Of a stretch of 64,000 nt of DNA, positions 45,564 to 45,614 are shown in pieces. Made by a program: the position numbers and the translations under genes. The notes under the pieces were generated by a model. The model made no database searches, was not told where the DNA came from, and saw nothing but the letters and a program-made list of their open reading frames with translations. Source of the stretch: an uncultured Pseudomonadota bacterium (GTDB taxonomy: Bacteria > Desulfobacterota > Binatia > Binatales > Binataceae). The first letter of the stretch is position 1. Each line of letters begins with the position of its first letter. The stretch lies in the NCBI GenBank assembly GCA_963759165.1, contig CAVWXK010000002.1:320231-384230 (forward strand). Direction: 5' to 3'.

Positions 45564-45614
45564 TGTGTGTGGCGAATTGCTAATTCGGGCAGAATTAGCA
45601 ATTCGCCACACACA
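45564..45614. repeat. ~50-bp palindromic element, best-preserved copy c
   Basis: tgtgtgtggcgaattgctaattc-gggca-gaattagcaattcgccacacaca has perfect 23-bp arms and a 5-nt spacer. Confidence 0.85.

Follow-up and report, generated by a model that had tools for sequence, protein, structure and literature searches.

Palindromes built from a single insertion-sequence end lie at rearrangement joints in Binataceae genomes

An insertion sequence (IS) of the uncultured phylum Binatota, apparently undescribed, was identified here together with what seems to be its miniature derivative: a palindrome of 51-52 bp that consists of two arms and a loop of 5-8 nt and has no coding capacity. Judged by sequence, the arms correspond to the left end (IRL) of this ~1.2-kb Binataceae IS, and the palindromes mark joints between unrelated pieces of DNA as well as truncated genes; they probably helped to make the rearrangements at which they are found. 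The explanation that we favour, and which we consider reasonably likely, is that the palindrome is a miniature non-coding, MITE-like derivative of the IS, with the structure IRL-IRL, moved in trans and left at rearrangement joints.

The palindromes and their parent insertion sequence

The window, by which we mean the whole 64,000-nt stretch of DNA analysed here, is part of the 578-kb second contig of a 3.85-Mb assembly in two contigs. Three copies of the palindrome and the genes next to them are central to what follows:

23974-24569, plus strand: Tn3-family transposase gene, N-terminal 199 codons, with an in-frame TAG at 24322; ends exactly at copy a
24570-24613, no strand: copy a, degenerate; outer tip missing from the right arm
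42921-43231, minus strand: cupin pseudogene, 5' 50-63 codons absent, truncated at the edge of copy b
43232-43282, no strand: copy b, 51 nt, imperfect arms, spacer TGCCA; joins the cupin pseudogene to the 3' end of the radical-SAM gene
43290-44408, minus strand: radical-SAM gene, stop codon 7 nt from copy b; inner flank of the block between copies b and c
45197-45537, plus strand: ferredoxin gene, 1-nt deletion near 45372; stop codon 27 nt before copy c
45564-45614, no strand: copy c, perfect 23-bp arms TGTGTGTGGCGAATTGCTAATTC / GAATTAGCAATTCGCCACACACA, spacer GGGCA

Copy c is the 23/5/23 palindrome without mismatch in its arms that the first-pass annotation had described, and the progressive degeneration which that annotation saw in copies b and a is borne out by their sequences. 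Its end coordinate for copy b (43281) has to be corrected to 43282, giving a length of 51 nt. Nor do the three copies share one orientation, as had been claimed: copy b aligns better with copy c in reverse (89.4% vs 87.2%), and orientation is itself an unsound notion for near-perfect palindromes, in which only the spacer and a few mismatches define a direction. The 16-nt core of the arm, when up to 3 mismatches are allowed, has 5 matches in the window against a mean of 0.73 in shuffled sequences, with 0 of 100 shuffles reaching 5. A BLAST search of the whole genome with the copies returned two more full palindromes (C2:310496-310544 and C1:1107190-1107239), a degenerate one (C1:1072959-1073010) and one solo left arm (C1:1545651). 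Three further palindromes thus bring the genome to six in all. The window also holds an unrelated perfect 32-bp palindrome, GGCGTTGTCCCCACGCGCGTGGGGACAACGCC, at 20869-20900, whose sequence differs from that of the arm family.

The solo arm leads to the parent element. It is followed after 87 nt by an ORF that codes for HTH_32 and rve (integrase-core) domains, and a protein search with this transposase in 121 genomes of the same family showed that several possess full-length genes, 372-386 codons long. Ten full-length IS copies with an arm-type left end were delimited, each with a single ORF of 374-381 aa in an element of 1188-1201 bp; the termini read TGT...ACA and the transposase carries HTH_32, rve and rve_3 domains. 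The left end has the sequence TGT(G/C)TGTGGCGAATTGCTGATT(C/T)TGGCAGAA, i.e. TGTsTGTGGCGAATTGCTGATTyTGGCAGAA, and the right end (IRR) is related yet distinct (...CGAATTCCAATTCAGGCGGC; reverse complement TGT(G/C)TGTG(G/T)CGAATTCCAATTCAGGCGGC). The arm of copy c is identical to the first 23 nt of IRL in one of these IS copies (L044) at 23/23 positions, and the next five nucleotides of that IRL, TGGCA, are one base apart from the spacer of copy c, GGGCA. Every palindrome has the IRL signature (…AATTGCTGATT) in both arms and the IRR signature (…AATTCCAATTC) in neither. It can therefore be described as IRL followed by an inverted IRL, with the TGT tips facing outward and the fold point at TTC-TGGCA-GAA, a mini-palindrome already present inside IRL.

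Two structural proposals had been made from the window. The one of a minimal MITE of an unidentified IS was right about the IS origin, a full-length IS with these termini having been found, and fell short on the target duplications and empty sites that a MITE predicts, neither of which was found (see below). The other, an inverted-repeat junction of an IS, does not agree with outward-facing tips on two IRL arms. A junction of abutted IS ends, as in a circle or dimer, is ruled out by the same outward TGT tips, which are those of a mini-element.

The sole copy of the IS in the studied genome (C1:1545651-1549422) is split by a 2.57-kb IS21-type insertion (istA/istB), which sits in the transposase gene at 1546484/1549058; right-end remnants of the IS are found on C2 at 462956-463316 and 505168-505262. 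Since the only transposase copy is broken, the six palindromes of this genome are now probably inert relics. Intact copies are present in related genomes, and the parent IS was found only in genomes of Binataceae (Binatota). In the NCBIfam comparison the transposase scores 91.6 bits with the IS481 model (cut-off 224) and 92.9 bits with the IS3 model (cut-off 160); on these grounds the element can be called IS481-like in build, not a member of IS481 by score. A collection of 72,556 plasmid records held no DNA match to the IS and no protein above 32% identity. Compared with the NCBIfam models and these records, the IS appears to be undescribed. Distant rve-type transposase paralogues, ~25% identical to that of the parent IS, occur in the window at 330-1270, 13900-14800 and 29105-30040.

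Joints in the window and in related genomes

In the window, copies a and b adjoin truncated genes. The Tn3 fragment matches DUF4158 (E = 1.3e-41), and in a tblastn search its residues 2-198 of 199 align to Tn3-family transposases, codon 199 adjoining copy a. That the palindrome terminates this fragment, as the first-pass annotation had said, is thus supported by an alignment that runs to residue 198/199. No DDE_Tnp_Tn3 domain was found anywhere in the studied genome. The palindrome is not itself a Tn3-family end: such ends start GGGG, and tnpA is merely cut by copy a. Homologues of the cupin pseudogene are open frames of 166-179 codons, to which the alignment begins at residue 64 (G001) or 50 (G019); the gene abutting copy b is accordingly 5'-truncated, as noticed before, with ~50-63 N-terminal codons gone, and the missing part was found nowhere in the studied genome. 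The pseudogene also lacks ~9-10 codons in its beta-barrel, 100 query residues corresponding to 327-330 nt in relatives. A composite transposon bounded by copies b and c that had entered the cupin gene is ruled out, because the 5' part of that gene lies neither beyond copy c nor elsewhere in the genome.

On the other side of copy b, the right flank is 89-93% identical in nine genomes of genus g45, and this homology starts 7-8 nt outside the stop codon of the radical-SAM gene, that is, at the element edge, where the g45 genomes have a different neighbour. The left flank of copy c, namely the ferredoxin gene and the 27 nt past its stop, matches G002:C275 at 92% identity as far as the base that adjoins the element; beyond it, the two sequences are unrelated. 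By this comparison of flanks, copies b and c bound a mosaic block, which was not found as a conserved unit in other genomes. The first-pass annotation had placed each copy at the edge of a damaged gene. This holds for the Tn3 fragment (copy a) and the cupin gene (copy b) and does not hold for the ferredoxin gene: copy c does lie 27 nt past its stop, but the frameshift is a single-base deletion ~190 nt upstream, beside a T run, and so unrelated to copy c. Given an assembly completeness of 82.6% despite two contigs, and close relatives that are MFD MAGs, we infer that some of the frameshifts and in-frame stops (45372, 24322) may be assembly or sequencing indels.

At copies b and c the element edge is the point where homology to other genomes ends, and so it is at four palindromes outside the studied genome (L082, L083, L084, L085). 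In G142, all that a palindrome leaves of a gene found entire in G132, G110 and G056 is its last 22 nt, and the upstream part of the truncated gene is represented only by a 67%-identical paralogue. In the 100%-complete G092, a gene that G106 and G074 have in full has lost its 5' part to a palindrome, and the removed part has no match in G092. Two pairs of genomes have one flank and the palindrome in common and differ in the other flank: G176 with G080, where G005 has that flank without the palindrome, and G132 with G064.

Two further arrangements were observed at such sites. At L083:2178-3219 (G142:C5) an alpha/beta-hydrolase gene and the last 22 nt of its native upstream neighbour lie between two palindromes with a distance of 935 bp. 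Past the second palindrome, an ACR3-type arsenite carrier gene is present with its 3' end, and arsR follows; the hydrolase is a gene-sized block between palindromes, like the one between copies b and c in the window. In several g45 genomes, at L112, L120 and L122 (G132, G080 and G142), other multi-copy repeats, which are 80-89% identical and spread over many contigs, end at the very base where the palindrome begins. These repeats are probably ends of other IS; either the unit inserts beside IS ends or other IS target the hairpin.

The joints show none of the usual traces of simple insertion. At 41 palindromes the abutting direct repeats measured 0 nt (29 cases), 1 nt (6) or 2 nt (6), which is the chance level for paired flanks, and no direct repeat longer than 3 nt was found at the 10 full IS copies; the check for target-site duplications that had been suggested from the window therefore came out negative for palindromes and IS alike. 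What the 41 palindromes do share is a flank bias of the form CC|element|GG, with C at -2 in 30/41 and G at +2 in 36/41. Queries made of joined flanks, 17 against 165 genomes and 12 against five close g45 genomes, matched across the joint in 0 of 29 cases, although the family-wide test of 17 may have missed empty sites because only the two best matches per genome were scored. Likewise, the flanks of seven copies from G002 and G013 gave no empty site in the studied genome. With no filled/empty pair in 29 tests, movement of the 51-bp unit has never been seen directly. In the three cases with a known native sequence, the CC or GG motif is present on the retained side only, which suggests, from few cases, that each joint formed separately.

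Spread, mechanism and alternative explanations

When 185,579 species genomes were scanned for the exact pattern, every palindrome came from a MAG labelled Binataceae or Binatus, or from 'uncultured delta proteobacterium' MFD bins. Of 165 Binataceae genomes, 75 contain the arm if up to 1 mismatch is allowed, with up to 84 arms per genome, mostly as plus/minus pairs 24-26 nt apart, i.e. as palindromes. Arms are present in 19/22 genomes with the transposase and in 31/99 without it, although kinship makes these 121 genomes non-independent. Copying as a unit is best seen in genus g45, where 18 of 19 fetched palindromes from 8 genomes, in pairs chosen for showing an arm mismatch, are one asymmetric unit, which hence exists in at least 18 copies. 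Its arms are AATTACTG and CAGCAATT, its loop is near TTTCCCCAG, and it occurs in both orientations; the flanks are all different, save for a left flank common to two copies. Three genomes, moreover, hold identical 51-mers at unrelated loci. Because fold-back of a single IRL would yield symmetric arms, the shared asymmetry indicates that units were copied from units. From these sequence patterns we infer that the palindrome is also moved as a unit.

A second, commoner variant of the palindrome, TGTGTGTGGCGAATTGCTACTTATTGCCAGGCTCAACAATTCGCCCACACACA, occurs in G002 (L030, L031, L033, L034) and G013 (L029). There it always forms one end of a repeat of 90-490 bp, which we call type B and whose opposite end is truncated to differing extents. 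Beyond the palindrome, this repeat carries tandem units of ~21 nt (GTTTTCCGCCNGTTTGAG...) resembling multiple protein-binding sites. The extension does not derive from the interior of the IS, and the repeat is also absent from the studied genome.

How might such a unit arise and spread? A first unit could have formed by fold-back or template switching at the mini-palindrome inside IRL. The IS transposase, supplied in trans, would bind the two IRL ends and copy units to new places, where either end would attack nearby DNA, with 5'-GG preferred beside the joint, in a one-ended or intramolecular reaction. A one-sided joint of this kind would delete or replace the intervening DNA, and would explain why one flank is native to the last base and the other foreign. 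For families related to this IS, strand switching at microhomologies and 'sloppy' one-ended attacks by copy-out IS have been proposed (bioRxiv 10.1101/2023.06.07.543989). Two considerations count against our proposal. A duplex of 51 bp falls short of the length needed for looping, and it is hard to see how the unit's two ends could be brought together in a single element in the usual way. In addition, rve-type DDE transposases normally leave target duplications, which makes their absence here unusual. Homologous recombination between dispersed copies could be another route to duplication-free joints. A bolder version of the proposal, which we regard as doubtful and put forward as a conjecture, is that a 51-bp hairpin of two identical IS ends is the smallest working transposase substrate so far described in bacteria, copied by its parent's transposase and making one-ended joints next to GG without duplication, and that it thereby cuts genes and stitches modules together across an uncultured phylum; if true, genomes would here be reshaped in a way that differs from ordinary MITE insertion.

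The absence of target duplications and empty sites would also fit an immobile scar that slippage during replication, or fold-back across IRL, formed in place where a full-length IS or two IS in inverted order once sat, and that spread only with its flanks. Size and build fit a ~50-bp remnant of two outer ends, as in the nearly precise excision of Tn10, the quasi-palindrome that is needed (TTCTGsCAGAA) exists inside IRL, and transposase-linked strand switching at microhomologies has been proposed for copy-out IS (bioRxiv 10.1101/2023.06.07.543989). We nevertheless judge such an origin unlikely. Slippage across one IS would give an IRL/IRR hybrid, whereas all arms are of IRL type; fold-back would give symmetric arms, but one asymmetry and one loop are common to at least 18 copies from 8 genomes, with nearly all flanks different; identical units sit at unrelated loci; and up to ~40 units per genome exceed the copy numbers of the IS.

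We find it very improbable that the palindrome is a hairpin selected by the host as a bidirectional transcript end, RNA stabiliser or symmetric operator. The RNA fold of copy c is indeed very stable (-43.7 kcal/mol, z = -8.5), and four copies (b, c, d and L085) lie 7-27 nt past stop codons. However, copy a folds no better than shuffles (z = -0.3), the arms are an IS end, the palindromes have no Rfam family match, four of them (a, b, L082, L083) lie inside broken genes, and the neighbour genes are unrelated between sites. An intrinsic terminator, with a GC-rich stem and a T tract, is not supported: no copy is followed by a T run, and none of the palindromes appeared in the output of a terminator scan. 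The symmetric operator once suggested for this element fares no better: copies that lie after stop codons or in broken genes, next to unrelated genes and in many genomes, have no promoter context, and we reject it. For copies just past stop codons, an exapted side-role at transcript ends is possible. Even less credible to us is a site for a site-specific recombinase that shuffles modules, in the manner of pdif sites, which bound modules in Acinetobacter plasmids, or of attC sites, which belong to integrons. The absence of target duplications would suit such a site, and so would blocks bounded by copies whose inner flanks are native elsewhere (between b and c in the window, and around the hydrolase in G142). 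Against it stand arms that are the IRL of a DDE-type IS, blocks that are not conserved units in other genomes, and a 23-5-23 layout that misfits the cores of tyrosine recombinases, which range from 11-6-11 to 13-8-13; no GTTRRRY / RYYYAAC attC cores are visible in the sequence. With core motifs lacking and arm and spacer lengths wrong, we reject an attC or dif-like site. A miniature derivative of the IS, moved in trans, thus remains the explanation that we prefer.

Significance and comparison with known elements

For the window, the palindromes account for several broken genes and block borders in its accessory region. More broadly, the 23-nt arm is a handy marker of rearrangement joints and IS debris when Binataceae MAGs are annotated. 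Should the one-ended, duplication-free joints prove to be transposase-made, they would offer a simple natural system for studying deletions at IS ends and the shuffling of modules.

Among known elements, the parent IS is most like the IS481 family (and the related IS3 family) in its size of ~1.2 kb, its one ORF without frameshift, its HTH_32 + rve DDE transposase and its 5'-TGT...ACA-3' ends; it differs in a transposase far under the NCBI cut-offs and in the lack of target duplication at 10 copies. The palindrome itself recalls what Foster and colleagues reportedly described in 1981, namely that 'nearly precise excision' of Tn10 leaves a palindromic remnant of ~50 bp. Both are of about this length and are composed of the two outermost IS ends, inverted with respect to each other, and a copy-choice event across short repeats inside the inverted repeats could be common to them; the copy-choice mechanism of nearly precise excision is described in PMC12524634. 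The Tn10 remnant, however, remains where the transposon had inserted, flanked by the 9-bp duplications, and is not amplified, whereas the palindromes occupy many loci and genomes and have no duplications. REP/REPIN sequences, which are moved by RAYT proteins, are likewise short dispersed palindromes that often lie just past genes, but the arms here come from a DDE-type IS and have no GTAG-type head. A search of the studied genome for PF01797 (Y1 HUH, RAYT) gave no match, while control genomes matched; in the absence of a Y1 transposase gene, a REP/RAYT system is not supported.

The closest comparison is with MITEs. Bacterial MITEs are non-coding elements of ~50-600 bp with the termini of a parent IS, moved in trans and flanked by duplications that match those of the parent (PMC6382973). 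Like IS-derived type-I MITEs (MITEAba12 from ISAba12, PMC6382973; Correia elements; RUP), the palindromes are small and non-coding, have parent-IS termini and exist in many dispersed copies, in genomes with and without an intact parent; mobilisation in trans is presumed for both, and both truncate genes. Size, termini and copy number are thus those of a MITE; duplications and filled/empty sites are not. The palindrome, at 51 bp, stands at the bottom of the size range, with only a 5-8-nt loop inside; both of its ends are the same IS end (IRL/IRL), and, unlike type-I MITEs, it lacks target duplications and was not seen in any simple insertion, every tested copy being at a rearrangement joint. 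On its sequence features, the palindrome is therefore best described as an unusual, MITE-like IRL-IRL variant.
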